Source: a virus (lineage: Duplodnaviria; Caudoviricetes). From it: a DNA stretch of 64,000 nt. A model generated the notes under the pieces. That model did no database searches. It worked only from the letters and a program-made list of their open reading frames with translations, and was not told where the DNA came from. The position numbers and the translations under genes were made by a program. Each line of letters starts with the position of its first letter. Positions within the stretch are counted from its first letter, which is position 1. Shown here in pieces: positions 2,729-49,781 of this stretch. The DNA lies in IMG/VR virus record IMGVR_UViG_3300029288_000060, positions 96,001 to 160,000 of that record, one strand, 5' to 3'.

Positions 2729-2750
2729 GTTTTTCTCTCTTTTAAATGAT

Positions 2751-3797: not shown

Positions 3798-3829
3798 TTA
3801 TATTACCTCCAAAAAAATTTAACGAATAA

Positions 3830-3868
3830 CTTGAGGATATTAGCACTAAATTAACTAATATCCTCAAG
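3830..3868 (-). terminator. 14-bp inverted repeat (terminator or RNA-processing hairpin)
   Basis: cttgaggatattag / ctaatatcctcaag with an 11-nt loop, intergenic. Confidence 0.6.
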
Positions 3869-3884
3869 CTTTTATTACTCAGAT

Positions 3885-5771
3885 TTAACTTATTAATTTT
3901 ATTATTGTATCTTTTTCTAAGGATTCTGGAGATAAATCTATTTCACTTTCCTCCTTAGAATTAACAAATTCCGCTCCTGCTTCTGTAAGAACATCGTTTA
4001 AAGTTATGGTTCCAAAATAAAAATCAAAAAGATATTGTCTTACTTTTCTTGTTAATTCTGTTTCACTTGAACTTATTGCTCCAGTTAAATTGCTTTCTAT
4101 GTAGTAAAATTTACATATTTTTGGTGTTGTAACTAACAAACCAAGAATTTTTTGTTTTACATCTATTTTACTACTATCTGAAGCAACAATATCATTAGGA
4201 TTTATCATGTATCGCTTAGAAAAATTAGAAACACCTTTTCCAACAATTATTTTATAAGGAACATCTACATTCTCGCGATAGTTAAAATAGTTGACAAATA
4301 AAATTGCAAGGTTATTCCGATAAGATGACACATGAAACAATTCAGAAGCGCCATGAGGTTTTGGCGCAGTAGTTAAATCACCAGAAAACATAATTCTTTT
4401 TCCGTCATCTCTGTAAGCACCATCCCATCCAACCTTGTTTCCATTTAGATCAATTAAAGAAAGATCTAAGTCAATTCTTGTATCATCAACATTAAACCAA
4501 TTAATACCAAAGACCATACTTTGCGGAATTGTCACAGATGTTCCAACAGGAAAGTTTCCGATAAATTGCTTTTCAGTCGCAGGCAAGGTATATGTTATAC
4601 CTTCTGGAATATAAATCTTCTTCCCAGATACTTTTTCTTTTAAATCATCTGATATAGATTTCAGGATGATATTTAAAGGTTGCATATACAATTCTGCTGG
4701 TTGTTTATCAAAATCAGTTATGAATGATTTCCCATTTCTGATTCTATACATAATGTTATCTGGACTATATAATCTAAACTTTAAAGCATAAGCTAGTCTT
4801 ACTTTCCTAAAAATGTTTGTGTTTTTTAATTCTCTTTTAAGTTTAGTTATATCTAAACTTTTCTTTTTAATATTATTAGTAACATTATTTAGGAAATCTT
4901 CAGGCATAGGTTTATGGTGAGTAACTGCAAGTCTTCTGATCTTATTGGTTATTTTTCTCATTTCTGAATTTGTTCTAAACGCCAAAAATAAGGGTTTGAA
5001 ACGGTAATAAATTGAAGCAAGATTTTCCAATCCATACTTGTCTGAATATTGCTTAAACAATTTTGAAATTCTAATATTTCTTTTTGATTTAATTTCTTCA
5101 ATTGTTTTTTTATCTTTAATTAACAACGTTTTCTCAGTAGCTTTATAGATAGCAAATCTTAAGAATTCGGTTGGATTTTTTGGAATTTGACCCAAATAAT
5201 CATACAAAATTACCCGAATTTCTTTATTTTTAATTTCTGATAATTCTTCTTCATTAATACCAACATAGGTTATAACTTCAACCATATCATTTATGGTATC
5301 CTCTGATAAAGCAATTCCAGAATTTAGAACAACTTGAACTTTTTCTTTTAATTCTTCTTTGGTATATCCTTTTATAACTACCAAAGGTATTTCTTTAATT
5401 TTTATTTTTGGAATTTTTAATCTTTCAGTTGGTATATAAACCAAATTGTTATCATAAATACCAGCAGCTTCAAAACCATATGTGGTTATGTAATGAATTA
5501 TTTGTTGGCATATCAGATATTCCATATCAGCATCTCTGATTATTTTCCATGATTTATGAAAAGTATTGTTCATGACATTAGCATCTAAACCAATACTTTT
5601 TTTAACTATATCAATTAATACTTTTAATTCTTCATCTAAATAGTTAAAAACAACTTCTGGTGAAAAAATAAACCCATATTGAATTGTTTTTGAAACTAAT
5701 TCCTTTGATGGGTTCTTTTTTCCTATTTTCGTAATGGGTACTGCTTTAAACAAATTCACAAAACTCTTCAT
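3885..5771 (-). CDS. alpha-helical (putative ROT/TROVE-like) protein with C-terminal TerD-like domain
   Basis: C-terminal WFNVDDTRIDLDLS and FSGDLTTAP..GASE are TerD-type motifs; long helical, Lys-rich N-terminal part containing NPTEFLR; the ROT-like assignment is inferred from architecture. Confidence 0.6.
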   Translation of the reverse strand: MKSFVNLFKAVPITKIGKKNPSKELVSKTIQYGFIFSPEVVFNYLDEELKVLIDIVKKSIGLDANVMNNTFHKSWKIIRDADMEYLICQQIIHYITTYGFEAAGIYDNNLVYIPTERLKIPKIKIKEIPLVVIKGYTKEELKEKVQVVLNSGIALSEDTINDMVEVITYVGINEEELSEIKNKEIRVILYDYLGQIPKNPTEFLRFAIYKATEKTLLIKDKKTIEEIKSKRNIRISKLFKQYSDKYGLENLASIYYRFKPLFLAFRTNSEMRKITNKIRRLAVTHHKPMPEDFLNNVTNNIKKKSLDITKLKRELKNTNIFRKVRLAYALKFRLYSPDNIMYRIRNGKSFITDFDKQPAELYMQPLNIILKSISDDLKEKVSGKKIYIPEGITYTLPATEKQFIGNFPVGTSVTIPQSMVFGINWFNVDDTRIDLDLSLIDLNGNKVGWDGAYRDDGKRIMFSGDLTTAPKPHGASELFHVSSYRNNLAILFVNYFNYRENVDVPYKIIVGKGVSNFSKRYMINPNDIVASDSSKIDVKQKILGLLVTTPKICKFYYIESNLTGAISSSETELTRKVRQYLFDFYFGTITLNDVLTEAGAEFVNSKEESEIDLSPESLEKDTIIKLIS

Positions 5772-13211: not shown

Positions 13212-14227
13212 AACTATGCGAATATGGATGCGGGCAAGAAGCTAAATATCAATTAAAAAATGGAAAATGGTGCTGCAGTAAAAGTTCTAATTCATGTCCA
13301 ACAAATATAAATTCAAAAAAATATAAACGCTTTGATAATCAAGAAAATCATCTTTGTGATTATGGTTGCGGACAATTAGCTAAATTTATTTCTAAAAAAG
13401 GAAAATATTGTTGTAATGATCATTTAACAAAATGTTCAATAATGAAAAATAAATATGGACTAATTTCTAAAGGTAAAATCAGAGGCCCACATTCAGAAGA
13501 AAGAAAACATAATATAAGTAAAGCTAAAAAAGGTAAACCAGTACATAATATTGAATTTAAAGAATCTCAAAGAAATAAAATGTTAAATGGATTTTCAAAA
13601 ACTTTAAATGAAATACCAAGAGATCCTAATAAGTTAAAAATAAAAGAAGAAAAACAAAAAGAAAGAATGCTAAATGGTATGGCAAAATATGTTTCATTAT
13701 TTAGAAAACCCCATACTGATGATAGAAAAGAAAACCAAAAAAAATTTATGATAGAAAAAGGAGCAAAAATTGCTAACTCAGCACAATGTCAAGGATTTAA
13801 AAATAAAAAAGAATGGATGTTAAATGGCGGAGCATCTTATTTAAATTCTTGTCCAGTAAAGGGATTTAAAAATCATAAAGAATGGTTATTAAACGGCGGT
13901 CATTCTTATATTTCTTCTTTTATTAAAAAAATTTCAAAAGATGAAATTAAATTAAGAAATTTAGTTCAAGAATTATATTTAAATTGTATACCGCAATATA
14001 AAATTTTAAATTATGAAATAGATATTGCTTTACCTGAATATAAAATAGCAGTTGAATTTGATGGTTATTATCATTTTGATACAGAAGAACATAAAGAATA
14101 TCACAAGCAAAGACAAATAAAAATAGAAAATGAAGGATGGAAATTTTATCGCGTAACAATGTTTGACAAATTCCCAAGTTTAGAAGAAGTTAAAGAAAGC
14201 ATACAAAAGTTATCAGAGGAAAACTAA
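13208..14227 (+). CDS. free-standing homing-type endonuclease (Vsr/DUF559-like PD-(D/E)xK C-terminus, NUMOD3-like motif)
   Basis: YEIDIA..IAVEFDGYYH..RQ..IENEGWKFYR; HSEERKHNISKAKKG; two CxYGCG..GKxCC modules. Confidence 0.75.
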   Translation: MKLCEYGCGQEAKYQLKNGKWCCSKSSNSCPTNINSKKYKRFDNQENHLCDYGCGQLAKFISKKGKYCCNDHLTKCSIMKNKYGLISKGKIRGPHSEERKHNISKAKKGKPVHNIEFKESQRNKMLNGFSKTLNEIPRDPNKLKIKEEKQKERMLNGMAKYVSLFRKPHTDDRKENQKKFMIEKGAKIANSAQCQGFKNKKEWMLNGGASYLNSCPVKGFKNHKEWLLNGGHSYISSFIKKISKDEIKLRNLVQELYLNCIPQYKILNYEIDIALPEYKIAVEFDGYYHFDTEEHKEYHKQRQIKIENEGWKFYRVTMFDKFPSLEEVKESIQKLSEEN

Positions 14228-16777
14228 ATGACTAATAATTCTGTTGATACTACCTTATCAAACCAAATATATCTATCTCGAGATAATATACGTAATCAGA
14301 TAATTGAGTATATGCAATATTATCTTGAATTAGAAAATGTTGACTTGGTAAAGAGTTCATTTTTGTCATTTATGGTGGATACCCTTGCTACCCTGACATC
14401 AAACGTTTTATTCTATTCTAGCTCAACCTATAAAGAGTTCTTTCTAACTAAAGCAGCCTTGCCAGAGTCTATTTATAATTTATCTGCTTTTTTGGGTTAT
14501 AACACAAAAGAAGCTTCGTATGCAATAGCGAATGTTTTAATGACTTTTCCTTTTGGATTTACAGATTCAACCACAACTTTTACAATTCCAGAATTTTTCA
14601 AATTTTATTCTGGAGAAATTGAATTTGTCACTTATTATGAAACAACGATTAATATAACTGGAACAACAAACGTTAATGTTACAGTTTTGCAGGATGGAAC
14701 AAAAACATACAATCTTCCTGTGAATATTGATACCACATCTGCTGAGCCATCATTTTCTTTTGTTTTGCCTTTAAGACAATATAAACAAGTTGTTCAAGAA
14801 TTCCAAATCGATGAGGATATTGAGTTATATCAATTTATTACCATAGATGTTCCATTAGATGGAAAGGTATCAACAATGTCTGTTGAAGTTAGGGATCCGG
14901 ATAGTTCTGCATGGAGATTATACACTGAATTTAATAGTGTTTATTTAATGTCTTCAACAGATTATGGATTTGTGTCTAGAACAACAAGTAATGGAAGAAG
15001 GTTAACATTTGGGAATGGTTTAATAGGAGTTCAACCTTTAGGTGGATCTACCGTTAAAGTTACCACAAATATAACAGAAGGTGTTGACGGAAATGTCATT
15101 GCTTCTTCAATTAAAACGGGTGATAGGATATATGTAACAGATTCATTTGGTAAAACAACCATTGTAAATTATAGTGTAATAAATCCCTCCCCTGCAACAA
15201 GCGGAGAGGATGAAGAATCAATTCAAGAAGTTAGAAGCAATGCAATTGCTAATTTAGTTGCTTTAAATAGATTGGTTTCTGAGTATGATTATCAACACGC
15301 TGGAGCAATCATTCAAGATTCTCCAATTGCTGATAATACATTACCAGTATTGAAAAGATCAGATGTTAAATGTAATGAAGTTCAATTATTTTCTGTTGTA
15401 AAATTTGGGACAACAACAAGAAATTCTGTGATAACTGGGGAAACAGTCACAGAAGATGCTATTGTTCCTACAAGAAATGCTTTATATGAAGTTCCAATTA
15501 CAACAACTTATATTCCAAGAAATACAATAATTACAATTGATTTATATGATTATTATACTTTATTTGATATTACCATAGACTTAATTAATTCTAGTGCTTA
15601 TTATAATTATATTATGTACGAAGTTGAAGTGGTTCCAATTTTAGTGACTAGTTATGGTATTGTTTATGATATTGTTTGCTCAAAATTAGCAGTTTCAAAA
15701 TCTGGAAATTTAGCAATTTTTGAAATTAGTTATAATTCAACAGAATTAGATTATGATTTATGCGTAGCAAAATTAAAAGTTATTCCGACATCCTTAATAT
15801 ATACGATGACAAATGATTCTATAAGTAAAAAGTTTACTTATACATTTAATCCATATACATTATTTCCGACTGGAAATGTTGATCTAGAATTTACTATCTA
15901 TACAAATTCTGGTTCACCAATTGCTACATATACATCTGAAGTCACTTTTAATAAACCCTTAAATGATTTTATGATGTCAAATGTTGTAATTGATACTACA
16001 GGCGCGACTACTGTTGTTTATGACATTCCGGTTGTGGAGAAAACATATTTTGATTCTATCGTAGAAAAAGATTTTGAATTATCCGTTTTGCAAAATATGA
16101 TGACAATTATGGATTTTAAGTCTTATAGAATGTTAACAGATTTTACTAATTTAAAGTTTACAAATACAATTGGTAATATGATTAACATGAAATTTAATAG
16201 TATAACGAAAGATGATTGTATCGATATTAACGTAACAACACCGCCCACAAGTCCTTCCATTGGTGATAGGTATATTATTGGACATACTGAATCAGGACTT
16301 TGGGCGAATAAAGATGGACAAATAGCCCATTGCATTGATACGACTGGAGTAATTTGGTTTTATTTTACTCCAATCACAGATGACATTATTTATGTAACAA
16401 ACAAAGGAAAAAAATATATTTATAATGGAAATAAGTTTGTATCAATGGAATATCAAATTCCCCTTGAAATTGATGTGGAAATTTTTAAACAAACCAGTTA
16501 TTATGGTTCTGATGTAGAATTATCCAATCTCGTAAAAGATACGTTGTTAACTGAATATTCAACCAGATTTGGTCCAAATATAACATTATATAGATCTGAA
16601 ATTATTAGTACGATTCAAAGTATTACTGGAGTTAGTCATTGTAATTTAATCAAACCAGAATCAAATATTTTCTTTGAATATGAATTAGAAAGTTTATCTG
16701 AATTAGAATTGTTAGAATACAGTGCAGAATATATTTATTTTGATGAAGATTCAATTTCAGTAAAAATTTATACATAA
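14228..16777 (+). CDS. baseplate wedge protein (T4 gp6-like)
   Basis: EFFLTKA..ESIYNLSAFLGY, LTFGNGLIG..P, SGEDEESIQEVR..RLVS.YDY. Confidence 0.8.
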   Translation: MTNNSVDTTLSNQIYLSRDNIRNQIIEYMQYYLELENVDLVKSSFLSFMVDTLATLTSNVLFYSSSTYKEFFLTKAALPESIYNLSAFLGYNTKEASYAIANVLMTFPFGFTDSTTTFTIPEFFKFYSGEIEFVTYYETTINITGTTNVNVTVLQDGTKTYNLPVNIDTTSAEPSFSFVLPLRQYKQVVQEFQIDEDIELYQFITIDVPLDGKVSTMSVEVRDPDSSAWRLYTEFNSVYLMSSTDYGFVSRTTSNGRRLTFGNGLIGVQPLGGSTVKVTTNITEGVDGNVIASSIKTGDRIYVTDSFGKTTIVNYSVINPSPATSGEDEESIQEVRSNAIANLVALNRLVSEYDYQHAGAIIQDSPIADNTLPVLKRSDVKCNEVQLFSVVKFGTTTRNSVITGETVTEDAIVPTRNALYEVPITTTYIPRNTIITIDLYDYYTLFDITIDLINSSAYYNYIMYEVEVVPILVTSYGIVYDIVCSKLAVSKSGNLAIFEISYNSTELDYDLCVAKLKVIPTSLIYTMTNDSISKKFTYTFNPYTLFPTGNVDLEFTIYTNSGSPIATYTSEVTFNKPLNDFMMSNVVIDTTGATTVVYDIPVVEKTYFDSIVEKDFELSVLQNMMTIMDFKSYRMLTDFTNLKFTNTIGNMINMKFNSITKDDCIDINVTTPPTSPSIGDRYIIGHTESGLWANKDGQIAHCIDTTGVIWFYFTPITDDIIYVTNKGKKYIYNGNKFVSMEYQIPLEIDVEIFKQTSYYGSDVELSNLVKDTLLTEYSTRFGPNITLYRSEIISTIQSITGVSHCNLIKPESNIFFEYELESLSELELLEYSAEYIYFDEDSISVKIYT

Positions 16778-16789
16778 GGAATTACATAC

Positions 16790-17896
16790 ATGCAAATTCT
16801 TTTAGCAAATGCAGTTTTTAATGATGTTAAAATAAAAAATTATATTAGCAAACTTACAGTACAAGAATTAAATAACTTAACAGAACCATGTTATTCCGCT
16901 AATTGGAAAAAACATTATTATGAATTACTTCAATTAACAAACTTAGAAGAAAAAGATATAAAATCCTTTATCAAGAGATTTTATTATAATACAAAAGCTC
17001 AAGATTCAATGATTCAATCTGAAGTTGGTTCAAATTTTTTATTTATTCTAATGTATCATTTTTTACAACAAAAAGATGAAGCTACATTTTCAATTGTAAT
17101 GATATATCATATGATTAGACAATACTCGAATTTATTTAAGAAATTTTTTAGATATTGTAAACCAGAAGTTTTTTCATATACATTAACTCATATGAATCCT
17201 GCGCATTTATTTAATAGAGAAAAAACTATTTCAAATACATTATTTTATTTGTCAAAGCAGATGAAAACTAGATATACTAAATATTTTCTTTCATTAGATG
17301 CCGAAAAAGTTTCTTTATTTTTATATGAATCTAGATCTAGAATTTCTCAAAGTTTGAGAAGTTTTGCAATTGAATATTATAAAAATGAATCACAAGGGTT
17401 AGGTATATCTAGTCAAAAAGAAACTGAAATGGGAGAAGAAATTTTTAATCCTGAATTAGAAAAAGGTAATAAAATAGCAGAATTAGTTTCTAATAAAATT
17501 ACGATATATAAAGAAATAGATTATAAAGCCCTAGAAGAAGCTAGAAAGATAACAAAGATTAATACATCCTATACAACATTAATTACAAAAGGATTGCAAA
17601 ATTCTAATTTTAATAGTAGTGTAAAATTTATTATTGAATTATATTTAAGAGATATTAAATCAGTTAATGAAATATGCGGGAAAGATTCAATACCGTACAT
17701 TAAAAAACTAATGAGTATTAAAAGGACAACAAAGGAAGTTTACTTTAAACAAGAAATTAGTAATTTAATGCAAAAAATAATCAAAACCACTCCCTTAGCA
17801 CCAAAATATCAAAAACTAACCTCCCAAACACAATTCCAAATTAATTCCTTCCTTGCATTTTATCTTGCACTCTATACAAAAAATTTAGTTTGTTAA
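16790..17896 (+). CDS. hypothetical protein
   Basis: 368 aa ORF with AAGGA SD. Confidence 0.7.
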   Translation: MQILLANAVFNDVKIKNYISKLTVQELNNLTEPCYSANWKKHYYELLQLTNLEEKDIKSFIKRFYYNTKAQDSMIQSEVGSNFLFILMYHFLQQKDEATFSIVMIYHMIRQYSNLFKKFFRYCKPEVFSYTLTHMNPAHLFNREKTISNTLFYLSKQMKTRYTKYFLSLDAEKVSLFLYESRSRISQSLRSFAIEYYKNESQGLGISSQKETEMGEEIFNPELEKGNKIAELVSNKITIYKEIDYKALEEARKITKINTSYTTLITKGLQNSNFNSSVKFIIELYLRDIKSVNEICGKDSIPYIKKLMSIKRTTKEVYFKQEISNLMQKIIKTTPLAPKYQKLTSQTQFQINSFLAFYLALYTKNLVC

Positions 17897-19152
17897 CCTG
17901 GATAAAAACCAGATTTATCCAAATTTCTTAATCCGTTCTCAATTGTTCTTCTTATAGTATCAATTCTAGATGGAGGTGGGTCACTTAAATCTGAAGATAC
18001 TGAAGCTGCATTACTTACTAGTGAAGATAAACTTTGTCCCGCAGAAGATGCTCCAGATTCCTCTCCATATATTGGTTCTAGTTTAAATTCATCTAACATA
18101 TTATCTAAATAACCTTTTAAAGTAGGTCTTGTATCTATTCCATTTTTTGACAATAATAAAGTACTATGTAAGTTAACAAAATCCATTCTTACGTCTACTA
18201 TAGAAACTCTTTGATTAAAACCAACTAAACCAGCATCTCCACCTTTAACTATAGTAATATTTGAAATAGCTCCTGCATGAATTTTGAATAATCCAGGACA
18301 GTCAACTTTACAAAAGAATGGATAATTATATGAATTTACTTCTTTTGATTGAGGTAATGCTAAAGTTAAAAGCGCTGCTAATGGAGCTACAATATATTTT
18401 TTTGTTGATTCTTCGCTTCCTGGATTTGGGTTATATAATTTTAATGAGCAACTAAATGTTGGTGAGTAAGAACTTCCTTTCCATATCATTGGAAAGTCAA
18501 CTCTAGCTCCTGCAAGCAATTGATTCATGGTTGATCCAATAGTTCCTTTTAACCCACCCGCTTTTTCCCATTCTTTTGCTTTTTGGTGAGCACCTGCTCC
18601 AGCAGATTCTATCCCACCTCCAAGAGCTGACATAAAATTACCAAACATACCTCCAAAACTTTCTGACCCTTCTTTCATCATTGTTCCCATATCTTTCATA
18701 GTACTAGTCGCATCTCTATTTCCTGACATTTGTGCTAATTGACCTAAACCACCTGCAGCAACATCAGTAAGTTGATTTAAAAAACTTTCTCCATAATCAT
18801 TTTGAAAAGAATCAGTTGGGTAATTTTCAGCCTGACATACAATCGTTATACTTTTAGATTGGTTTTGTAATTCTGAGGTTTGAAAATTTACATCTTTTAA
18901 TAATTTAACATATTCATCCCAAGCTTGTTGAGAATCTAAAATGAATAAAGAAAGACCTGTTTGACTTTTAGGTACACAAGGTTGTATTGAAACTTGTAAA
19001 CCAGAATTAATCATTAAATTTTTAGTTGCCGTAACACTTGAACCAGTGTCTGGAGGCCCTCCAATATAATCTGGAATTGTGGATGGAGAAGATGATTTAA
19101 CAGCGGCAGGTGATGCTTTTGATTTTGGAGAGCTTGCTGTATATTTAAACAT
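17893..19152 (-). CDS. putative tail/baseplate structural protein
   Basis: 419 aa, downstream of tape measure; Gly-rich central segment. Confidence 0.5.
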   Translation of the reverse strand: MFKYTASSPKSKASPAAVKSSSPSTIPDYIGGPPDTGSSVTATKNLMINSGLQVSIQPCVPKSQTGLSLFILDSQQAWDEYVKLLKDVNFQTSELQNQSKSITIVCQAENYPTDSFQNDYGESFLNQLTDVAAGGLGQLAQMSGNRDATSTMKDMGTMMKEGSESFGGMFGNFMSALGGGIESAGAGAHQKAKEWEKAGGLKGTIGSTMNQLLAGARVDFPMIWKGSSYSPTFSCSLKLYNPNPGSEESTKKYIVAPLAALLTLALPQSKEVNSYNYPFFCKVDCPGLFKIHAGAISNITIVKGGDAGLVGFNQRVSIVDVRMDFVNLHSTLLLSKNGIDTRPTLKGYLDNMLDEFKLEPIYGEESGASSAGQSLSSLVSNAASVSSDLSDPPPSRIDTIRRTIENGLRNLDKSGFYPG

Positions 19153-40406: not shown

Positions 40407-40536
40407 TGAATATTTCTTTTATGAATTCTAAAATACTATTACACCCTTTTTTAACTACTGGTTCTAAATCCTCTAAGGTTTCATTTCCTATTTTTTTTAA
40501 ATCTTCTTTATATTTTTGTTTTTTTGATTCATTCAT
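40339..40536 (-). CDS. hypothetical protein
   Basis: 65 aa with GGAGG SD. Confidence 0.5.
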   Translation of the reverse strand: MNESKKQKYKEDLKKIGNETLEDLEPVVKKGCNSILEFIKEIFNDFITSLFESRKKKRGTNEKAK

Positions 40537-40879
40537 TTTTTCTATCCTCCACTATTTTAAAATCTTGCCAAGGTTGATAAAATGCACTATCAAAATTAAA
40601 AATCTTAAACATATTTTCGATAATTTGTATTGTTTCATCATTTACAACGTTATCTTTAATAAAATCTGGAAAACAAAATTCTTTTGTTTTTGGATCACAG
40701 TTTGGATGATTGCCTTTATTAATTATTATTTTTTCAATCTTTTTCATTTCATTCGTATATATAGTAAATTCATTTATAATATAATTAGAATTTAAAATGG
40801 TAATATTATAAAGAATTGAGTTACAAATTAACTTATTTGGAACTATTGTTTTTTCTATAACATTCTGTTCAATAATCAT
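40529..40879 (-). CDS. E2/UBC-like protein
   Basis: HPNCDPKTKEFC matches the UBC HPN...C catalytic signature; overlaps the ThiF gene. Confidence 0.55.
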   Translation of the reverse strand: MIIEQNVIEKTIVPNKLICNSILYNITILNSNYIINEFTIYTNEMKKIEKIIINKGNHPNCDPKTKEFCFPDFIKDNVVNDETIQIIENMFKIFNFDSAFYQPWQDFKIVEDRKNE

Positions 40880-41745
40880 GCAGAACCTGTTTCTGGTAAT
40901 AATTCAACGTAATATTTATTATTATGGATACCAACACTAATAATGTAATAATTGAATTGATACGGAAGGTTTTTGGTAAGGGAGGAAAAACTGAAGATAA
41001 TATCTTGAATTGTACTAAAGGTATTTTTTGGAACTATTTTTGTATTATAAGGTGAATGTTTGTCTCCTAAAGAAACTAATAATTCATTATCTTTATTTAT
41101 ATCAATAAGTGAAGAATAATTATTATTTAAATTAATTAATTTTCCATCAAAATCATTATTGTCATCATAAACTATATCCACATCATTTTTGTCAACTAAA
41201 GCTTTTATTCTTTCTGAAATACAATCAATTGGTATTTCAAAAACTTTACGCTTTTTTACCATTAAATTAATCAAACCTTTTTCAAATAATGTCGTAACAT
41301 TCAAAGCAGCATTTTTTAAGTCAATTCTTGTTAATCTTGATGCGTATTTTCCTTCATGTTGCTTTAAATAATTAACATTTTTTCTGCAATCCATAATAAG
41401 ATTTCTAAAAGATATATATAATCTCATATCTATTAAATCTTTTCTATTATAAGTAAAATCTCTACAATCAATAATTAAATCAAACTTTGGGATTTTTGTT
41501 TCGCCTTCTATAAATTTTTTATTTAAAATATTGACTCGACATTTATTATTTAACTTATCGCAAATAGCTTTTGTTTTTAACTTTCCAATATCTTTTTCAT
41601 CATAAATAGAATTCTTAGTATTTTCTAATTCTACAGTATCATAATCTATTAAAAGTAAATTTTTTGTTGAGTCTAATTCTGAAAGATTTTTAGCTAAAAA
41701 TCCTCCAATAGTACCTAAACCAATTATGCAAATATCACTATACAA
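40876..41745 (-). CDS. ThiF/E1-like adenylyltransferase (second copy, divergent C-terminus)
   Basis: IIGLGTIGG, IDYDTVELEN, DLIIDCRD. Confidence 0.8.
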   Translation of the reverse strand: MYSDICIIGLGTIGGFLAKNLSELDSTKNLLLIDYDTVELENTKNSIYDEKDIGKLKTKAICDKLNNKCRVNILNKKFIEGETKIPKFDLIIDCRDFTYNRKDLIDMRLYISFRNLIMDCRKNVNYLKQHEGKYASRLTRIDLKNAALNVTTLFEKGLINLMVKKRKVFEIPIDCISERIKALVDKNDVDIVYDDNNDFDGKLINLNNNYSSLIDINKDNELLVSLGDKHSPYNTKIVPKNTFSTIQDIIFSFSSLTKNLPYQFNYYIISVGIHNNKYYVELLPETGSA

Positions 41746-41762
41746 ATATTGCCTCCTATTTA

Positions 41763-41770
41763 TTTGTTCT
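41763..41770 (-). promoter_or_regulatory. AGAACAAA candidate phage promoter element
   Basis: Directly upstream of the AGGAGG SD of gene 41745. Confidence 0.5.
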
Positions 41771-41795
41771 ATTAATTAAAGAAATTTTCTTAATT

Positions 41796-42038
41796 TTATT
41801 CATTTTCCTTCATAATTTTAATCATTTCGTCAATATTTTCTTTTAAAAAAATCATATCCTTAATTGATAATCTTCCACTAGCTGAATAACCAATAGTGCC
41901 GTCTTTTTTTTCATAACTTCTAGTAAATCCAATTTTCGATGGCCCACCATCATATGAAAAAATTGAACATAATAAACTAGATGAACCTTGTTTTAATTCA
42001 AATAGCTTTATCAATTTATCTTTACTCTCATCATACAT
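41796..42038 (-). CDS. PC4/YdbC-like ssDNA-binding protein (putative)
   Basis: SYDGGPSKIGFTR..KKDG..GRLS pattern. Confidence 0.45.
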   Translation of the reverse strand: MYDESKDKLIKLFELKQGSSSLLCSIFSYDGGPSKIGFTRSYEKKDGTIGYSASGRLSIKDMIFLKENIDEMIKIMKENE

Positions 42039-42066
42039 TGTTTGGCTCCTTTTTCTGTTAAAGAAA

Positions 42067-42114
42067 AAGGAGGATTAGAAAAGGTAAATAAAATATATTT
42101 TTCTAATCCTCCTT
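42067..42114 (-). terminator. 16-bp hairpin with U-tract, probable terminator
   Basis: aaggaggattagaaaa / ttttctaatcctcctt. Confidence 0.7.
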
Positions 42115-42122
42115 AATTGTTT

Positions 42123-42635
42123 TTATTTTAATTTAAAAATTTGTATTTCATCTCTTGTCGGTTCTGGTTTAAATTCTGATTTATACTTAAAATATTCTCT
42201 TGTTTTTTCTACTGGATAAATGTAAGGTATCGTGACGAATATTCTTTCATATTTTTCAAACTGTCTTGTAATATGAGTAAAACCTAACTTATTGATTTTT
42301 TGTAAAAGTTCACCTTTTAATTCTTCTGATTTTATTTTGAAACATTTTTGTATATTATACAAATCTCTTGAATCATGTAAATTTGGATAAATTTCATGAG
42401 AATCACTTCCTTTGAATATTGCTTCAGCTGCCCTACTCTTTGAAACCTTTCTAGCAATTTTTTTATTATGAAAGTCAATAATAGAACAAATAGCTACACC
42501 TCTTGCTAAAATCTTTTTATCTTCTGAAAACATAACACAAGCAGTAAAGATATTACCTACAAGAGGACAATTATTATAATAAAATCTGATATCATCAACG
42601 CCGCATTCTTTTAGTTTTTGAGCTAAAGTGTCCAT
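42123..42635 (-). CDS. hypothetical protein
   Basis: 170 aa with GGAG SD. Confidence 0.65.
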   Translation of the reverse strand: MDTLAQKLKECGVDDIRFYYNNCPLVGNIFTACVMFSEDKKILARGVAICSIIDFHNKKIARKVSKSRAAEAIFKGSDSHEIYPNLHDSRDLYNIQKCFKIKSEELKGELLQKINKLGFTHITRQFEKYERIFVTIPYIYPVEKTREYFKYKSEFKPEPTRDEIQIFKLK

Positions 42636-42661
42636 AATATAATCTCCATTAAATAAAAATT

Positions 42662-42695
42662 AGGAAGATGAAAATAATATTATTTTCATCTTCCT
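42662..42695. terminator. perfect 34-bp palindrome after the Ubl gene
   Basis: aggaagatgaaaataat|attattttcatcttcct. Confidence 0.65.
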
Positions 42696-42703
42696 TTCTT
42701 AAA

Positions 42704-43177
42704 TTAACCCTTTGTACCGGCTTGTCTTACAAATTCTAGTACATCGTTACTCTTTAAAATATATGAATCTTGAACTTCAACGCCATTAACAACTCCAACG
42801 CCATCAGTTTCGATATTCAAAATTTCCCGATATGTAGCTTTTATAAATCCAACAGATCTTCCAACTACAGGATAATTCGATGACGCTGCGCCACATGATA
42901 CAGAAATAAGACTTTTATAAGAATCATCCTTTTCAATAAAACTATGAAGATTGGCAGTAATATAAGGAATTTTGCTATTATCAACAGGCTTTTTTGATAC
43001 GGTTTCCTTTGAATTTGCATTTTTCAAACTTTTATAAAAAGCTCCAATAGCTTCAATAATTACATCTTTCCTTGCTTTTGCCATCTTAGGAATATCATAC
43101 ATTTTACAAATTTCGCGTAATTCAGCAACCGTTTTTTCCAAAAGCTCATCATTGTTAAATATACGGATGTTTGACAT
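42704..43177 (-). CDS. ubiquitin-like (beta-grasp) protein with N-terminal Rho-N/HeH-like domain
   Basis: KTVAELREICK..IP..ARKDVII (Rho-N-like); VVNGVEV..YILKSNDVLEFVRQAGTKG ends in Gly; ATG 43177 follows AGGAGA. Confidence 0.75.
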   Translation of the reverse strand: MSNIRIFNNDELLEKTVAELREICKMYDIPKMAKARKDVIIEAIGAFYKSLKNANSKETVSKKPVDNSKIPYITANLHSFIEKDDSYKSLISVSCGAASSNYPVVGRSVGFIKATYREILNIETDGVGVVNGVEVQDSYILKSNDVLEFVRQAGTKG

Positions 43178-43178
43178 A

Positions 43179-43880
43179 TTAAAATCTCCTTGTATTGTTT
43201 TTTGTTTTTGGTACTCTTTTTTTACAATTCGCATTCATAGTTAACAAATCAAAATAAATTTCTGAAAAATTATAATTGTTATTTTCAATTATATTGTAAA
43301 ACGCAGCACACATATAAGAAGCTACCATAAAATTGGTAAAATATAATTGAGGTTTTGAATTAGATAACTCTTCGCAAGACATTTCATTTGGTAATTTATC
43401 TGTAGCGTTTTCAATTTCTGGATGATAATCAGTTAAGCTTGGAGTTATATTTACTCCATCCTTTTTAATAAAAACTTGAACATTACCATCTGTTAATTCA
43501 TTTCCGCCAGAAATGATAACAATATCTTTCAAATTTTCAGCGTACTCTGAAATTATCAGTCTTGTTCTATGGTTATCAACCCCTACAAATACTATTGTAT
43601 TTTCATTTATAATACTAGAAATTGTATTTTCATCAACAAATACTGAATGATCTACAAAATTAATTGATGTAAATTTATCTTTTAATTCAGCACATTTTAT
43701 TTCAGCTTTATTACCAAACCCATTAAATTCTTGTCTTTTGGTATTTTTAAATTCATATTTATCTCCATCAACTAAATTGATAATGGGTTGAGTTATATTG
43801 TCTCTTGTATTAATATATCTTGAAATTGTGTTTGATAATATTGAACCAATACCGCCTAACCCTATGATTGTAATTTCCAT
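43179..43880 (-). CDS. ThiF/E1 ubiquitin-like activating enzyme
   Basis: IIGLGGIGS, DGD..KN..RQ, GVDNHRTR, SGGNE, SCEE putative catalytic Cys, PQL..TN. Confidence 0.9.
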   Translation of the reverse strand: MEITIIGLGGIGSILSNTISRYINTRDNITQPIINLVDGDKYEFKNTKRQEFNGFGNKAEIKCAELKDKFTSINFVDHSVFVDENTISSIINENTIVFVGVDNHRTRLIISEYAENLKDIVIISGGNELTDGNVQVFIKKDGVNITPSLTDYHPEIENATDKLPNEMSCEELSNSKPQLYFTNFMVASYMCAAFYNIIENNNYNFSEIYFDLLTMNANCKKRVPKTKNNTRRF

Positions 43881-43883
43881 TTT

Positions 43884-44873
43884 TCACCATGTCCATAATT
43901 TTTCACTGTCAAAAATGCTGTAATCAAGATTAAAATTATTTTTACAATCTTCCTCTTTTACTTTTTTTACCTCTTCTAAGTTTATTTTTGTAGTTCTATG
44001 GATACAATTGTTACAAACATCATATTTTTTACACTCGGACACCTCCATTTCTTTTGATTCTGTTTTTATTAACTTTGATCCATCGAACATATAAGTTGGA
44101 TATGAATTAAAATCAAATTGAGTGGTTTTATATTCTTTCTTCTTTACTTTTCTTAACCATTCTTTTTTAAAAGTTATTTGATTTGAATAATTAGTTAAAG
44201 CAAAACTAAACGTTGTTTTTACACTTTTATTATAAACTTTCTCTCCATTTATAACTTGAAAACTAGGTTTAAACATATTTGTTGAGTAATTACAATATTC
44301 TACAAATTTTAAGCCTTCAATATAGTCTTCTGAAATAACTGGAACTCTCATTCCATTAACGGCTACAGTTGCAGTTATATCAAAAAACTCTTTATCATTT
44401 AATTTCCCTACAGTAATATGAATTCCATCAAACTTATCTTCATCACTAACATCAGTAGCGGAATGAAATGCCGCCATACTTCCATGACTATGAATTGTAC
44501 CAATCAAGTTATAATTTTTTATAACTATGTTAGCTTTGTAGGATAAAGACGCGGAACTTACCTCTTGCTCTGGAACATAAATTTTGTAATTTTTATTTTT
44601 TTTATTATAGTATAAAAGAACAATTGCTTCACTGGAATATAAATTATACACTTCTCTAAAAAAAGCTAAAATATTTGCAAATACTTTTTCAGGAATTTTT
44701 GGAATATTAATTTTAGCAAAAGTTTGAATATTATCCAGAAATGATATTTTGTCAACGGGTGTGATACTTTCAATTAGATCTAATTTCTTTTTTAAAAAAA
44801 TTCCATCTTTTGCAATTATGTAGCATGTTTCATCCTGTGGTATACTTTTCCCATCATTTATATATACATTCAT
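43884..44873 (-). CDS. JAB/MPN metallopeptidase (deubiquitinase-like)
   Basis: SEA..PEQEVS, GTIHSHGSMAAFHSATDVSDE (JAMM HxH..S..D). Confidence 0.9.
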   Translation of the reverse strand: MNVYINDGKSIPQDETCYIIAKDGIFLKKKLDLIESITPVDKISFLDNIQTFAKINIPKIPEKVFANILAFFREVYNLYSSEAIVLLYYNKKNKNYKIYVPEQEVSSASLSYKANIVIKNYNLIGTIHSHGSMAAFHSATDVSDEDKFDGIHITVGKLNDKEFFDITATVAVNGMRVPVISEDYIEGLKFVEYCNYSTNMFKPSFQVINGEKVYNKSVKTTFSFALTNYSNQITFKKEWLRKVKKKEYKTTQFDFNSYPTYMFDGSKLIKTESKEMEVSECKKYDVCNNCIHRTTKINLEEVKKVKEEDCKNNFNLDYSIFDSEKLWTW

Positions 44874-47364
44874 TCAAGCTCCAAGTTGTTCTTGCAAATG
44901 TATGATTCCGCGAATTATTATCTACCAAAATATTTCCAAATATATTCATTTTTCCACGTACGACTGGTATCGATAATAATTCTTTTACAGCATATCTAGG
45001 CAGTAACAAACCATATCTTATTAAATGATTAGTATTTGTTATTGGATGTCCATTTTCAAACTGATAATCATCCGGTGATAAATGTTGATAAAAAGAACAA
45101 TAAGTACTATGGTAAGTTTTGACTAATAATTTATCACTAAGTTTAAATTTAAAAATATCCCCATCCTGAATTTTATTTATTGGTGCAGGCTCGTTTATTT
45201 TAAGTTTATGGAACATTAATTCGTTTGAGTTATAAATATTAAAGTCAGCCTCAATTTGCTCAAATAACAATGTTCTATAATTAGAAAACAATACTAAGGG
45301 TTTTAGATCATCAATAATAAAAGCTTTAATTTCATTGCAGTCTTTCATTGGAAAATCAGCAATACTTTTTTTATTTGCTTTTACCTTCATACCGATTTCA
45401 AGGTTATTTATTTTTTTGCAAACCTGTCTTACAGTGGGAAAATAATTTTTTACTCTAGATTTTTCTTTGTCAAATTTTATAATTGGGTGTTTTAAAGTAT
45501 TATTCTCGTCATCCACTAAAATTAAATAAAAATAATTGTCATCTATTTCAAAACTAGAAATTTTTCTTATGACAAACATTTCTTCTGGTTGTTCCCAATT
45601 TATAACAATTACTTCATCCCCTATATGATAAGATATATCCTTATCATAAGACATAATTGTAAAAAATTCTTTTTTATCTATGCAAATATTTTGAAAATAA
45701 TTTATACATTTATCGATATTACATTCTAAAGATTTGACCGAGTAATCAAAATCATCACTATCAATAAGAAATCCTGAAGTTTTCAAGATATTTACATTAT
45801 GTTCTTTTGATGTATTAGTGAAAAGTTGATCATTGAATCTATATACTTCCTCACTAAAAATATTTTTTTCATCAACAATACTGTAATTTGATTTGTCATT
45901 AAAGTCGATCATAAGTTTAGGGCGGTCTTGATTTTCATGGTCAAATACTAAATAAGCTTTATTATCTAATATTTCTACACAATCATATTTTGTAATATAT
46001 AATTTCACAAAAGTTGAACTAAATCTATTATGATGTTGTATATAATATTTATTATTTTTAATTAAACTAATATTTTGAAATTTAATATCAGTATTATCAA
46101 CTTTTTCAATAAATTTATTTAAAAAAGAAGATAAAAGGTAAAAGTTTGCGCCAATTTTAACCTGAATTGTGTTATCTCTTAATTTTAAAATTTTTTCAAC
46201 TGGTTGAACTGATTCTGAAGCTTTAAAATATATAATATCTCCAATATGTAGTTCTGTTTCTTCATTAATTTTTATAGATTCCATAGTATTTATTTTTTCG
46301 ATAGATTTAAGAATTTCTTCACGGTTTTCACCGTTTAAATCTATTTTTATTATATTATTTTCATTATCTTCTAATCTAACTGTGGTTATATAATTTTCAT
46401 TATCATTATAATGTTTAAAGAAATCACAAACATAGTAATTTACATCTTTGTATTTTATTTCATCTCCGCATGATAAAAATGTAGTTCCCAATGGGATAGA
46501 TTCCATCCGATATTTTCTAATTTTGTTTTTATATTTATTTTTAATTGAATTTTGTAAATTGCTAAATGAGTATTGTCTTGATTGATAAGCTTCATTAATT
46601 AAATTATTTATAGTAAGACCAGAATTTAACCATCTTGTTGAAAATATAAATAATGGATCAATTTTTGTATTGTATGCCCAGGTAAACCAATCACATAGAT
46701 GGGGATTAATTTCATATTTTTTAATAAACATTTCATAATCAGTATTAAATTCATTGAACCAAAATCTATTAGTTAATTCTTCAACTTTTTTAACAATAGA
46801 TGTAGATGACTCTTCATCCACAACTATTTCATCACCCAAACAAGCTTGATAATTACTATCAATATTTGGTAAACATGGAATTAATAAATAGTCTTCTAAA
46901 CTTGATATGGGATGTATTCTAAAAAATATTTTAAAACTTTTATATTGGTTATATCTATCCAATATAATAGCATAAACTATATGTGGAAAAGATAATGAAA
47001 ATCTATAAGGTTTTGTATGAAGAGGAAACTTGTCTAACTGGTACTCCTCATATTTTCCATTTATTTTATGAGCTTCAATTTGATAAGTTAAATCTTTATT
47101 AAGAAGTATAGTTCTTATTTTTGGAGTTTCTTCAATGATAATAATATTATTTTGATTTGGTAATGTTCTTATATATTTACAATTATTTGGCAGAATCTCA
47201 TGTTGCGGAGGAAGAGAGTTGTTATATAATCCATCAAGAAAATCTGTTGTATTCATAGAACTTTGAATAGAATAAGGTTCTGCTTTAACATAGTCTTCAC
47301 TATATAATGACGTTACATTTTTGACAATTGAATCATTAATTACTATTTCATCTATTGTATTCAT
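44854..47364 (-). CDS. prokaryotic E2-like domain fused to long repeat region
   Basis: SFPHIVY..PCLPNIDSNYQACLG..FWFNEFN resembles prokaryotic E2 family D (PRTRC protein B); adjacent to JAB/E1/Ubl. Confidence 0.6.
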   Translation of the reverse strand: MNTIDEIVINDSIVKNVTSLYSEDYVKAEPYSIQSSMNTTDFLDGLYNNSLPPQHEILPNNCKYIRTLPNQNNIIIIEETPKIRTILLNKDLTYQIEAHKINGKYEEYQLDKFPLHTKPYRFSLSFPHIVYAIILDRYNQYKSFKIFFRIHPISSLEDYLLIPCLPNIDSNYQACLGDEIVVDEESSTSIVKKVEELTNRFWFNEFNTDYEMFIKKYEINPHLCDWFTWAYNTKIDPLFIFSTRWLNSGLTINNLINEAYQSRQYSFSNLQNSIKNKYKNKIRKYRMESIPLGTTFLSCGDEIKYKDVNYYVCDFFKHYNDNENYITTVRLEDNENNIIKIDLNGENREEILKSIEKINTMESIKINEETELHIGDIIYFKASESVQPVEKILKLRDNTIQVKIGANFYLLSSFLNKFIEKVDNTDIKFQNISLIKNNKYYIQHHNRFSSTFVKLYITKYDCVEILDNKAYLVFDHENQDRPKLMIDFNDKSNYSIVDEKNIFSEEVYRFNDQLFTNTSKEHNVNILKTSGFLIDSDDFDYSVKSLECNIDKCINYFQNICIDKKEFFTIMSYDKDISYHIGDEVIVINWEQPEEMFVIRKISSFEIDDNYFYLILVDDENNTLKHPIIKFDKEKSRVKNYFPTVRQVCKKINNLEIGMKVKANKKSIADFPMKDCNEIKAFIIDDLKPLVLFSNYRTLLFEQIEADFNIYNSNELMFHKLKINEPAPINKIQDGDIFKFKLSDKLLVKTYHSTYCSFYQHLSPDDYQFENGHPITNTNHLIRYGLLLPRYAVKELLSIPVVRGKMNIFGNILVDNNSRNHTFARTTWSLNECIYK

Positions 47365-48050: not shown

Positions 48051-48365
48051 TTATTTTAACCTTTCGATCTTATACATTTTTTTTGATGAAGTAACAACAT
48101 ATTCCAATCGATCAAATGGTACAGATCGCCAATCTTGTTTTTCTATATCAAAAACACTTAAAATTTTACTTTTTTGTATTTTTGATAAAATTTTAGTTAA
48201 ATCTATTCCTTTAGGTTTTTTCTCCTTTGGAATTCTATTAAAATCTAAAGTACATTTCATCATTCGAGTTGAACCATCTTTTTTTTCAAATTGTACTGAA
48301 ACTTCTTTTTCATTTTTTATTATTTTTAAGAATTCAATTGCTGATGTGATTGTTTCTTTCTCCAT
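48051..48365 (-). CDS. WYL_2/Sm-like SH3-fold protein
   Basis: VQFEKKDGSTRMMKCTL..VFDIEKQDWRS. Confidence 0.7.
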   Translation of the reverse strand: MEKETITSAIEFLKIIKNEKEVSVQFEKKDGSTRMMKCTLDFNRIPKEKKPKGIDLTKILSKIQKSKILSVFDIEKQDWRSVPFDRLEYVVTSSKKMYKIERLK

Positions 48366-48743: not shown

Positions 48744-49781
48744 TTATTCACCTTTTTCATTTCTTACATTTGAATGAATTAAGTTATCTGATGTTTCTTT
48801 ATCATTGGAAATCATTTCGCCCATCATGTAGCATGTATGGTTACATAATTTACAATATTTCTTTTTATCCGCAACTAAAGACTTTTTCAAATTTTTATTT
48901 ATTTCAGCGTTATGATCTAAAACATTAAGAATAGTAAAATTAAGAGCTAAATATTCAGCTCTGAGTCTTAAACATAAGCGCAAACAACCATCTGCATCAA
49001 CACACATTGTATGAAAATCTTTATCTAACTTACAATCATATTCACTTGGAAGGTAATCATACGTCATAGATAATAATGTATCTCTCATATGAACATTTAA
49101 TTTTTCATCAATAATTTTATCTAAAATATCTTTTAGTTCATTACTTTTATTTACTAATAATTTTTCATCTTCAATATTAGAGAAATCATAATATTCAGAT
49201 TTTGAAATATCAATGAACGTAATATCACTGTTAATACCTCTATTAGTTAATTCTTTAACTAATGGATATAAAAACTGATAATTATCATTTGTAACAGTTA
49301 TTTCAGCAACAACGTCATGTATTTTTTCCTTTAATTGTGTAAGTTTTTGTAAACCTTGCAAACTTTTCCTTGCTACGTCAGAATTTGCTCCTTCTATAAA
49401 AATAATTGGATCTACAGATGCAGTATATCCTTGTAAATAATCTACTTTTGATAATAATTCTTCAGTTTTCTTTTCATCAATATTATTACTAATTACTGTG
49501 TAAGCAATATTTTCATTGTTACAATAGTTAACAATCTCATAAAGATCTTCTCTTAGAGTTGGTTCCCCACCATAAAAAATCATAAAACAATCTGGATTAT
49601 GTTCTTTTAGTTTTTCTAAACCATAAATAACGGATTCTGTTGACATTTCATGTTCATGATAGTATCGCATATTAGGATATATGCCTGGTTTTGTTTTATA
49701 ATCTCTTACAAGTCTACAATAATCACACCTTAAATTACATCTTCTTGTGAGAATCCAGTTAACTATTTGAATTTTATTCAT
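48744..49781 (-). CDS. radical SAM enzyme with C-terminal Cys-rich (SPASM/twitch-like) extension
   Basis: CNLRCDYC, GGEP, C..CVDADGCLRLC..CKLCNHTC. Confidence 0.85.
   Translation of the reverse strand: MNKIQIVNWILTRRCNLRCDYCRLVRDYKTKPGIYPNMRYYHEHEMSTESVIYGLEKLKEHNPDCFMIFYGGEPTLREDLYEIVNYCNNENIAYTVISNNIDEKKTEELLSKVDYLQGYTASVDPIIFIEGANSDVARKSLQGLQKLTQLKEKIHDVVAEITVTNDNYQFLYPLVKELTNRGINSDITFIDISKSEYYDFSNIEDEKLLVNKSNELKDILDKIIDEKLNVHMRDTLLSMTYDYLPSEYDCKLDKDFHTMCVDADGCLRLCLRLRAEYLALNFTILNVLDHNAEINKNLKKSLVADKKKYCKLCNHTCYMMGEMISNDKETSDNLIHSNVRNEKGE

Follow-up and report, generated by a model that had tools for sequence, protein, structure and literature searches.

A tightly packed set of genes in a huge phage probably encodes a ubiquitin-like protein-tagging system of the PRTRC type (ParB-Related, ThiF-Related Cassette; NCBIfam TIGR03734-03742), and it belongs to a gene block that a large clade of huge phages keeps as part of its core. 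The cassette lies on the minus strand of the window, by which we mean the whole 64,000-nucleotide stretch analysed here (bases 96001-160000 of the 268.8-kb IMG/VR record IMGVR_UViG_3300029288_000060, which is estimated to be 74% complete). It opens with four genes, at spacings of -20, +3 and +1 nt, that are read in the order giant E2-like protein, JAB peptidase, E1 and ubiquitin-like tag candidate. An earlier note, made from the letters of this DNA, had proposed that the phage carries a ubiquitin-like modifier (Ubl) together with E1, E2 and JAB, and at the level of components the proposal is borne out, with Cys169 of the E1, Asn167 and Cys175 of the E2-like protein and the full JAMM motif all conserved. 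The six open reading frames (ORFs) that it named are likewise present on the minus strand where it had placed them, the one exception being the start of the tag gene (Table 1).

The four-gene unit and its proposed chemistry

The E1, as the earlier note had it, is a ThiF-type enzyme: it matches ThiF (PF00899) at 8.7e-15, with 54.9 bits against a cut-off of 28.1, and its ATP-site residues and Cys169 are conserved. Residues G7, G9, G12, D38, D40, R49, Q50, D102, R107 and C169 are common to PRTRC ThiF and to gp246c of phage Arash, and at least 90% of 54 IMG/VR homologues retain C169. PRTRC_ThiF (TIGR03736) is matched at 7.5e-8 and 32 bits, a level at which generic ThiF and MoeB models score equally well, and the PADLOC models for the E1 (Cap2) of the cyclic-oligonucleotide-based antiphage signaling system (CBASS) match at 7.9e-5 along the Rossmann stretch only. 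The profile match begins at position 22, and the protein is therefore taken to be without the N-terminal Arg-finger helix of ThiF and MoeB.

A model of the E1 in complex with tag residues 66-157 scored 0.72, against 0.00 for the best of three controls; in a benchmark of the score, 58 of 80 solved complexes and 2 of 110 mismatched pairs attained this mark. Three runs of the complex agree in at least 98% of contacts, with a partner predicted local distance difference test (pLDDT) value of at least 79. In the modelled complex tag residues 150-157 contact E1 residues 7, 9-12, 100-104 and 107, which make up the nucleotide site, and the C-terminal tail of the tag is thus modelled as sitting in the adenylation site of the enzyme. 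Because E1-Ubl complexes have already been solved, such a pass shows a likeness to complexes of that kind and not binding by this particular pair.

The JAB peptidase of the earlier note is upheld by a complete JAMM motif (E82, H128-x-H130, S138 and D141) and by two family matches, to Prok-JAB (3.4e-5, and 26.4 bits, above the cut-off, in a six-frame search) and to PRTRC_A (TIGR03735; 7.7e-13, residues 16-178 against model positions 27-190). The five motif residues are invariant in eight aligned proteins, including PRTRC_A, Arash gp247c and a Sporosarcina plasmid homologue, and are at least 90% kept in a set of 54. Like PRTRC_A, the protein has an extra N-terminal domain. Its C-terminal extension holds, at residues ~290-300, a conserved motif, C-x-x-C-I-H-R/K, that PRTRC_A lacks and that may be a small metal-binding element.

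The E2-like protein is best understood through its family. The 836-residue protein has 19 close homologues, and a profile of residues 1-262 gathers 1,697 clusters at 50% identity, 930 of them at or below 1e-10; among 150 listed matches of this profile, nearly all are 800-900 residues long and carry the domain at the N-terminus. In an alignment of 150 sequences that share 25-55% identity, the only invariant positions of the domain are P59, R84, P127, N167, C175 and W202. Asn167 stands eight residues before Cys175 in a motif, L-P-N-I-x6-C-L-G, that corresponds to the E2 active-site pattern with its His replaced. Prok-E2_D is matched by 71 of the 150 relatives in a Pfam scan (best 8.2e-9), with no other recurrent family, and in an hhalign comparison of the domain family with PRTRC_B the N-x7-C motifs line up at E 0.0098.

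Direct searches with the window protein are less telling. The 836-residue sequence has no direct match in Pfam, NCBIfam, PADLOC or PHROGs, the E2-domain profile finds none among PDB sequences, and a tblastn search of the domain against cultured phages is likewise empty. Compared by hhalign with a single PRTRC_B or Arash gp248c sequence, the family gives motif-level alignments only, at a probability of 0.2-4%. The AlphaFold2 (AF2) model of the whole protein has a mean pLDDT of 78, and a Foldseek search with it against the PDB mostly picks up the barrel array (Spt5 and WD/IFT proteins, at a template modelling score of about 0.1), which makes it uninformative on the E2 domain. The label E2-like given in the earlier note thus stands by way of the family, through the Prok-E2_D relatives and the invariant Asn and Cys, and falls short of a direct Pfam match on the window protein itself. 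With its ~six small barrels of SH3, Tudor, BAH or KOW type, the protein may be an E2 with a built-in module for binding targets or partners.

The fourth gene encodes the tag candidate, in which a SAP/HeH/Rho-N helical head is joined by a linker to a C-terminal domain of about 88 residues. Its start is Met20 of the ORF as listed (43177, not 43234), the position at which 45 of 45 homologues begin; so placed, the gene has no overlap with the E1 gene and begins 1 nt past the E1 stop. The Gly-terminated Ubl of the earlier note accordingly keeps its AGTKG end and loses its first residues. The C-terminal domain is highly conserved, with an invariant terminal G-x-K-G and an invariant Cys95. Its weak Pfam matches all fall in beta-grasp families (TGS in 11 of 22 members, ThiS in 6 of 22 and Ub-Mut7C in 1 of 22), and the tag family aligns by hhalign with the PRTRC_C family over 38 columns at E 4.5e-4 to 7.8e-4. 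Prok_Ub (PF14454) does not match the tag. A profile search of PDB sequences returned SAP and Rho-N matches only, and a fold search with the tag model classified the SAP head only, confidence in the C-terminal domain being too low for a meaningful search. A tblastn search of the C-terminal domain against plasmids and phages gave nothing significant, and a search of 185,579 species genomes of bacteria and archaea turned up no relative of the tag.

The very end of the tag is informative. Among 62 IMG/VR copies, 44 stop exactly at G-x-K-G, 13 run on by one residue, 2 by two residues and 1 by five. The 16 copies that are extended by 1-5 residues past the Gly would provide a trimming job for the JAB, and this variation looks like the classic behaviour of modifiers that must be trimmed in some cases.

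From these parts a tagging cycle can be proposed. The tag would be produced with Gly157 already free at its C-terminus, except in some relatives, where the JAB would have 1-5 additional residues to trim. The E1 would bind the C-terminal domain of the tag, the A-G-x-K-G tail would enter the ATP site, as modelled, and Gly157 would be adenylated; the conserved residues suggest that the tag would then move as a thioester to Cys169 of the E1 and on to Cys175 of the giant E2. The SH3/Tudor-like barrels of the E2 may select the target, the tag being joined to a lysine without a separate E3, and the JAB may subsequently remove it again. Given the SAP/HeH head of the tag and the position of the cassette between DNA-repair and RNA polymerase genes, it might be expected, speculatively, that the targets are found on or near DNA.

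To our knowledge, the only bacterial systems for which ubiquitin-like conjugation has been demonstrated to date are those that hosts direct against phages (CBASS, Bil and Bub). Here what appears to be the same chemistry belongs to the constant gene content of a very large set of huge phages, in which gene order is unchanged down to ~30% identity, and if the cassette conjugates, it would represent a virus-side use of ubiquitin-like tagging in bacteria. The tag also suggests how its products might be recognized: since trypsin cuts after the invariant Lys156 that precedes the terminal Gly, the remnant is a single Gly, and after a tryptic digest any modified lysine should carry this one Gly (+57 Da).

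A conserved block and its second pair

The cassette is not peculiar to one genome. Five syntenic contigs, in which the E2-like protein is 33-48% identical, share the order radical SAM, WYL_2, two small genes, E2, JAB, E1, tag, 170-aa gene, 80-aa gene, ThiF2, 116-aa gene, two small genes and RNA polymerase beta' and beta, and a member at ~28% identity keeps the order from radical SAM through tag. A search with the tag found 63 IMG/VR loci; E1 and JAB lie upstream of it in 59 of them and the E2 domain in 54, and the complete block order is seen in 50, the remainder being mostly cut by contig ends. The carrier contigs are up to 527 kb long. Retention of genes and order in syntenic contigs at 33-48% identity, and in most of the 63 loci, goes far beyond chance, and the cassette appears to be a core block, and not an accessory set, in a large clade of uncultured huge phages that seem not to integrate.

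The source of the window itself is a huge phage with a guanine-cytosine content of ~26% in this region. Besides the cassette, the window encodes a terminase, tail-like proteins, Mre11/Rad50-like proteins, a PurA-like protein, a radical SAM enzyme and unsplit RNA polymerase beta' and beta subunits. A nucleotide search of the region against a phage collection gave no match, the beta' subunit is at most ~30% identical to that of any phage record, and the phage would appear to be without a close cultured relative. The cassette is always situated between DNA-repair genes and the phage RNA polymerase genes, and its placement just upstream of the latter, as described in the earlier note, recurs in the syntenic contigs.

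Immediately past the stop codon of the tag gene lies a terminator-like hairpin, followed by the 170-aa gene, the 80-aa gene, ThiF2, the 116-aa gene, two small genes and the polymerase genes. A hairpin of ~-20 to -22 kcal/mol occurs at the equivalent place in five of six loci, with stem sequences that differ; that its strength is kept while its sequence is not argues for a conserved unit boundary, and the hairpin is likely the end, or an attenuator, of the four-gene unit.

Downstream of this boundary is a second pair of proteins, which the earlier note had described as another ThiF and a small HPN..C protein resembling a UBC domain. Both ORFs are present and the motif is conserved, with the UBC label resting on that motif only. 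ThiF2 is found downstream of the tag gene in 59 of the 63 loci and is followed by the 116-aa gene in 58. It is a divergent E1-like protein in which the Rossmann half is kept: ThiF is matched at 1.2e-13 over residues 3-104 only, the CBASS E1-E2 (Cap2) models at 3e-12 and BilD at 4.8e-5 (residues 4-78), and hhalign aligns it with the E1 at 94.7% probability over 93 columns of the Rossmann half only. The C-terminal half is unrelated to the E1. At least 90% of 50 homologues of the 116-aa protein retain its HPN as well as a Cys placed nine residues further on, whereas Cys61 is not conserved; Pfam and NCBIfam hold no family match for it, and the protein is a candidate minimal E2-like partner of ThiF2. 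Because the second pair is as conserved as the core, it is considered part of the system, and the two proteins probably act alongside the core, whether by forming another E1-like/E2-like relay or by serving as a non-catalytic partner.

The C-terminus of ThiF2, YVELLPETGSA, is invariant in 7 loci and ~60% kept in 52. An LPxTG pattern of the sortase type can be recognized in it, and its third residue from the end is a Gly. The possibility that the C-terminal part of ThiF2 is itself a fused tag was considered and is unsupported (hhalign against the tag family, E 0.5-0.6).

Several neighbours of the cassette are conserved as well. The 170-aa protein has syntenic homologues at 43-57% identity and is present in 30 of the 63 loci, with no Pfam or NCBIfam match. 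The 80-aa protein has homologues at 59-74% identity and is present in 17 of the 63 at E <= 1e-5; its pattern recalls the single-stranded-DNA-binding coactivators of PC4/YdbC type, with no supporting Pfam or NCBIfam match. The stretch directly upstream of the cassette always encodes a WYL_2 protein (an Sm-like SH3 barrel; 1.6e-11) and a radical SAM enzyme of SPASM type, the ~28%-identity relative included. In one relative the RNA polymerase beta' subunit (14139-18164 of its contig) is 1,341 residues long and carries an intein (Intein_splicing). Outside the window, at record positions 245080-248900, there is a sugar-modification cluster composed of an AsnB-like amidotransferase, a PseC-type aminotransferase (1e-82) and a GalE/dehydratase-like enzyme. 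The second of these is the sole Aminotran_5 match, and the lead that it might be a cysteine desulfurase was dropped.

Table 1. Positions in the window of the cassette genes, their domains and adjacent features
Feature	Position	Strand	Remarks
Radical SAM enzyme	48744-49781	-	SPASM type
WYL_2 protein	48051-48365	-	
Giant E2-like protein, 836 aa	44854..47364	-	First gene of the four-gene unit; overlaps JAB gene by 20 nt
N-terminal E2/UBC-like domain, aa 1-262	46579..47364	-	Prok-E2_D type; Asn167 46864-46866, Cys175 46840-46842
~Six small SH3/Tudor/BAH/KOW-like beta-barrels, aa 284-836	44857..46515	-	~550 aa; role putative
JAMM/JAB metallopeptidase, 329 aa	43884..44873	-	PRTRC_A-like, with C-terminal extension; JAMM H128-D141 at 44451-44492
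Minimal ThiF-type E1, 233 aa	43179..43880	-	GxGxxG loop 43845-43862; candidate thioester Cys169 43374-43376
Ubiquitin-like tag candidate, 157 aa	42704..43177	-	SAP/HeH/Rho-N helical head, linker and C-domain
Tag SAP/HeH/Rho-N helical domain, aa 7-54	43016-43159	-	
Tag C-terminal domain, ~88 aa	42707-42970	-	Ends A-G-T-K-G-stop
Terminator-like hairpin	42662..42695	-	15-bp stem, then U-rich run; 8 bases past tag stop codon
Conserved 170-aa protein	42123..42635	-	Between the two modules; no family match
Conserved 80-aa protein	41796..42038	-	No family match
ThiF2, second divergent E1-like protein, 289 aa	40876..41745	-	Rossmann half kept
116-aa protein	40529..40879	-	HPN aa 58-60 and Cys69 (40673-40708); overlaps ThiF2 by 4 nt

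Weighing the tagging reading

Several results weigh against reading the cassette as a PRTRC-type tagging system. Neither PRTRC_B (TIGR03737) nor Prok-E2_D (PF14460) has a match on the window genome, and the curated PRTRC cut-offs are missed by the JAB (48.4 against 101.8 bits), by the E1 (32 against 144.75) and by the tag (9.1 against 45.95). The last score is that of the sole, non-significant candidate for PRTRC_C (TIGR03738) in the 269-kb record, the C-terminus of the tag at E 0.42, and a deeper tag profile aligned with PRTRC_C at E 0.12 over the tail only. ParB_N (PF02195) gave no match at E <= 1 in the ~74% complete record, as against matches in 11 of 14 control genomes, and the PRTRC_E and PRTRC_F models gave none at E <= 1 among the ten cassette ORFs, to which that search was limited. 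The earlier note had made a beta-grasp fold of the Ubl a test of its proposal, with structure prediction among the checks that it named for each ORF: modelled alone by AF2, the C-terminal domain of the tag has a pLDDT of 38-55, with a strand-strand-helix-strand-strand order that is compatible with a beta-grasp, which leaves that fold putative; within the E1 complex model the same domain has a pLDDT of at least 79. In the second pair, the ATP-site Arg-Gln of ThiF2 is replaced by Asn-Ser, and the alignment of the 116-aa protein with the phage E2-domain profile, which places HPN on L-x-N and Cys on Cys, is not significant (hhalign E 0.015-0.13, probability 0.4-3%). Finally, no paper on experimental PRTRC function was found, and conjugation by operons of this kind is itself a prediction made in 2006 (Iyer et al. 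2006; PMC1779556). With scores below the cut-offs and no ParB, the cassette is filed as a distant, ParB-less branch, one that would work in the manner of PRTRC, and not as a member of PRTRC.

The tagging reading can be drawn out further, into a pro-viral core system in which the SAP-headed tag is covalently attached to proteins situated on the host nucleoid, on the phage genome or in the transcription machinery, and in which the E2, reading targets with its barrels, and the second pair, resembling the active and inactive halves of eukaryotic E1, would make the cassette a phage counterpart of chromatin- or transcription-linked ubiquitination and not a device of defence or counter-defence. In so specific a form we regard it as unlikely.

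The earlier note had also entertained neutralization of host Ubl defences, and the phage does possess both forward and reverse components. Host Bil and CBASS employ E1, E2 and JAB proteins against phages (PMC11601603), and a cassette that jams or reverses Bil or type II CBASS, its JAB stripping host tags or its E1 and E2 soaking up or mis-tagging host components, might account for the likeness of the ThiF2 Rossmann half to the Cap2 and BilD models. However, a tag of its own and a complete forward pathway would be needless for a pure antagonist, the BilA, BilB, BilC and Cap3 models match nothing in the cassette, and a fixed core over so wide a range (the 1,697 E2-domain clusters, with order kept at about 28-30% identity) differs from the patchy spread typical of anti-defence genes. 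Its status as a core block of a huge-phage clade speaks for a function within the phage's own cycle more than for pure counter-defence, which we consider quite improbable.

Very improbable, in our judgement, is a sulfur-carrier function, in which a thiocarboxylate on the tag would supply the sulfur of a thiolated nucleoside or cofactor, in the manner of ThiS-ThiF, MoaD-MoeB or TtuB-TtuC, and conjugation would be absent or incidental. The next-best matches of the E1 are ThiF and MoeB adenylyltransferases, the weak matches of the tag C-terminal domain include ThiS and TGS, its Cys95 is invariant, and every locus has a radical SAM gene ~1.4 kb upstream of the cassette. Known sulfur carriers, though, end in Gly-Gly, unlike the invariant Lys-Gly found at the tag end in all copies, and an E2-like protein with invariant Asn and Cys is packed with a JAB into the same tight four-gene unit as E1 and tag. 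The radical SAM enzyme is moreover of the SPASM peptide-maturase type, and the 269-kb record encodes no rhodanese or cysteine desulfurase, although it is 74% complete and host enzymes could serve.

It could also be supposed that the tag is never transferred and that E1, E2 and JAB act as scaffolds or chaperones in a non-conjugating assembly factor, the SAP-headed protein being a DNA binder whose tail is held by the E1-like protein. The low fold confidence of the tag C-terminal domain (pLDDT 38-55), the loss of the ATP-site motif from ThiF2 and the lack of a direct significant match for the window E2 domain in the solved structures and profiles searched all agree with such a view. Yet catalytic residues are strictly kept over hundreds of diverged sequences (the JAMM motif, D102, R107 and C169 of the E1, N167 and C175 of the E2 and the terminal Gly of the tag), which argues for chemistry and not only binding, and there is very little chance in our estimation that the cassette works in this way.

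Least probable of all is exclusion, in which the cassette would tag proteins of competing phages or plasmids as Bil does, with a benefit in co-infection only: PRTRC-type cassettes do occur on plasmids, integrative and conjugative elements (ICEs) and megaplasmids, and addiction or protection roles have been suggested for such mobile operons (Iyer et al. 2006; PMC1779556), but a fixed place amid replication, repair and transcription genes, near-universal in the clade, better fits housekeeping in the phage cycle, and the want of any relative in the 185,579 bacterial and archaeal species genomes gives no sign of a mobile defence island.

Relation to PRTRC and other known systems

Of the systems described, PRTRC and Prok-E2_D appear from sequence to form the nearest family, and not Bil, Bub or CBASS. 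PRTRC probably corresponds to the operon type 6d of Iyer, Burroughs and Aravind, in which a Ubl and an E1 are combined with a JAB that has an additional N-terminal domain and with an E2 without the classical His (Iyer et al. 2006; PMC1779556). On a Sphingomonas plasmid the PRTRC order is ParB, E, C, a 370-aa protein, B, A (the JAB) and ThiF; there PRTRC_B is a Prok-E2_D protein (1.5e-29) and PRTRC_C a Prok_Ub protein (3.6e-16) that ends R-R-A-V-G-T-K-G, and 117 of 120 relatives of PRTRC_C end in GTKG. The phage cassette appears to share with PRTRC all four core parts; it has the order B-A-ThiF, which is that of E2, JAB and E1 here, as well as an E1 with a conserved Cys, a G-T-K-G end to the tag and the extra N-terminal domain of the JAB. 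It differs in several respects: the phage E2 has ~550 extra residues of beta-barrels, the tag, at 157 aa against about 68 aa for PRTRC_C, has a SAP/HeH head, the tag gene follows E1 whereas that of PRTRC precedes E2, the ThiF2/HPN-Cys pair is additional, and the carrier is a lytic-looking huge phage instead of a plasmid or ICE.

The host defence systems resemble the cassette in part. Bil types I and II have separate genes for Ubl (BilA), E2 (BilB), JAB (BilC) and E1 (BilD), and type II tags may have variable N-terminal domains (PMC11601603). Separate genes for the four functions are likewise found here, but Bil is a host anti-phage system and the cassette a phage core block; the PADLOC models for BilA, BilB, BilC and Cap3 have no match among the cassette proteins, and tag, E2 and JAB match no Bil model. 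With type II CBASS the cassette has in common E1/E2 chemistry and a JAB that trims a C-terminus (Cap2 and Cap3); the phage E1 and E2 are separate, unlike the Cap2 fusion, the matches are confined to the Rossmann stretch, and no CD-NTase or other CBASS match was found among the ten cassette ORFs. Bub operons (formerly '6E' or DUF6527) provide a bacterial E1/E2/Ubl conjugation pathway with architecturally diverse tags (PMC11601603); they have Ubl-E2 or E2-E1 fusions and a DUF6527 serine peptidase, neither of which is found in the phage cassette. In ThiS-ThiF, MoaD-MoeB, TtuB-TtuC and archaeal SAMP/UbaA/JAMM1, too, the substrate of a ThiF-type E1 is the C-terminal Gly of a small protein, and the E1-tag model resembles the solved pairs. 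What sets the cassette apart from these is a tag ending in Lys-Gly and not Gly-Gly, the presence of an E2-like protein and the lack of an encoded sulfurtransferase in the record.

Simpler relatives occur in phages that can be cultured. Salmonella phage Arash encodes gp248c (weak Prok-E2_D), gp247c (JAB, 1.4e-7) and gp246c (ThiF, 7.8e-15) in the same order as here. Upstream of gp250c-gp246c, at about 180513-180713 of OQ632216.1, an unannotated 66-aa ORF, in a frame that differs from that of the annotated gp251c, ends in YFSRRTGTKG and is probably the tag of a PRTRC-like cassette, in which case gp251c would be a mis-called gene. The Arash paper does not discuss genes gp246c-gp248c. Bacillus phage vB_BauM_KLEB27-3 (217 kb; 2660-5708 of the examined stretch) encodes gp196 (Prok-E2_D, 2.7e-4), gp195 (annotated with a PRTRC_A domain) and gp194 (ThiF). 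The ThiF is found in phages Edson and vB_BceM_WH1 as well. In Arash and KLEB27-3, unlike the window, the E2 forms a protein of its own, of ~250 aa, neither a SAP-headed tag nor a second pair is seen, and identity to the window proteins is 25-32%. On the Sporosarcina psychrophila plasmid pSP10-266k (2344-6538), a Prok-E2_D protein of 362 aa is encoded two genes upstream of a JAB-ThiF pair, beside dnaX and holB; the set is PRTRC-like and lies within the replication module of a non-mobilisable megaplasmid.

We found no paper on a phage-encoded E1, E2, JAB and Ubl, and a 2021 survey of jumbo phages makes no mention of one. If the cassette conjugates, it would open a route to the function of PRTRC, predicted in 2006, and the related trios of the culturable Arash and KLEB27-3 make that route testable. 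Against this background, what is distinctive of the huge-phage cassette is a domain-expanded E2, a SAP-headed tag, a second pair, the lack of ParB and its standing as part of the core.

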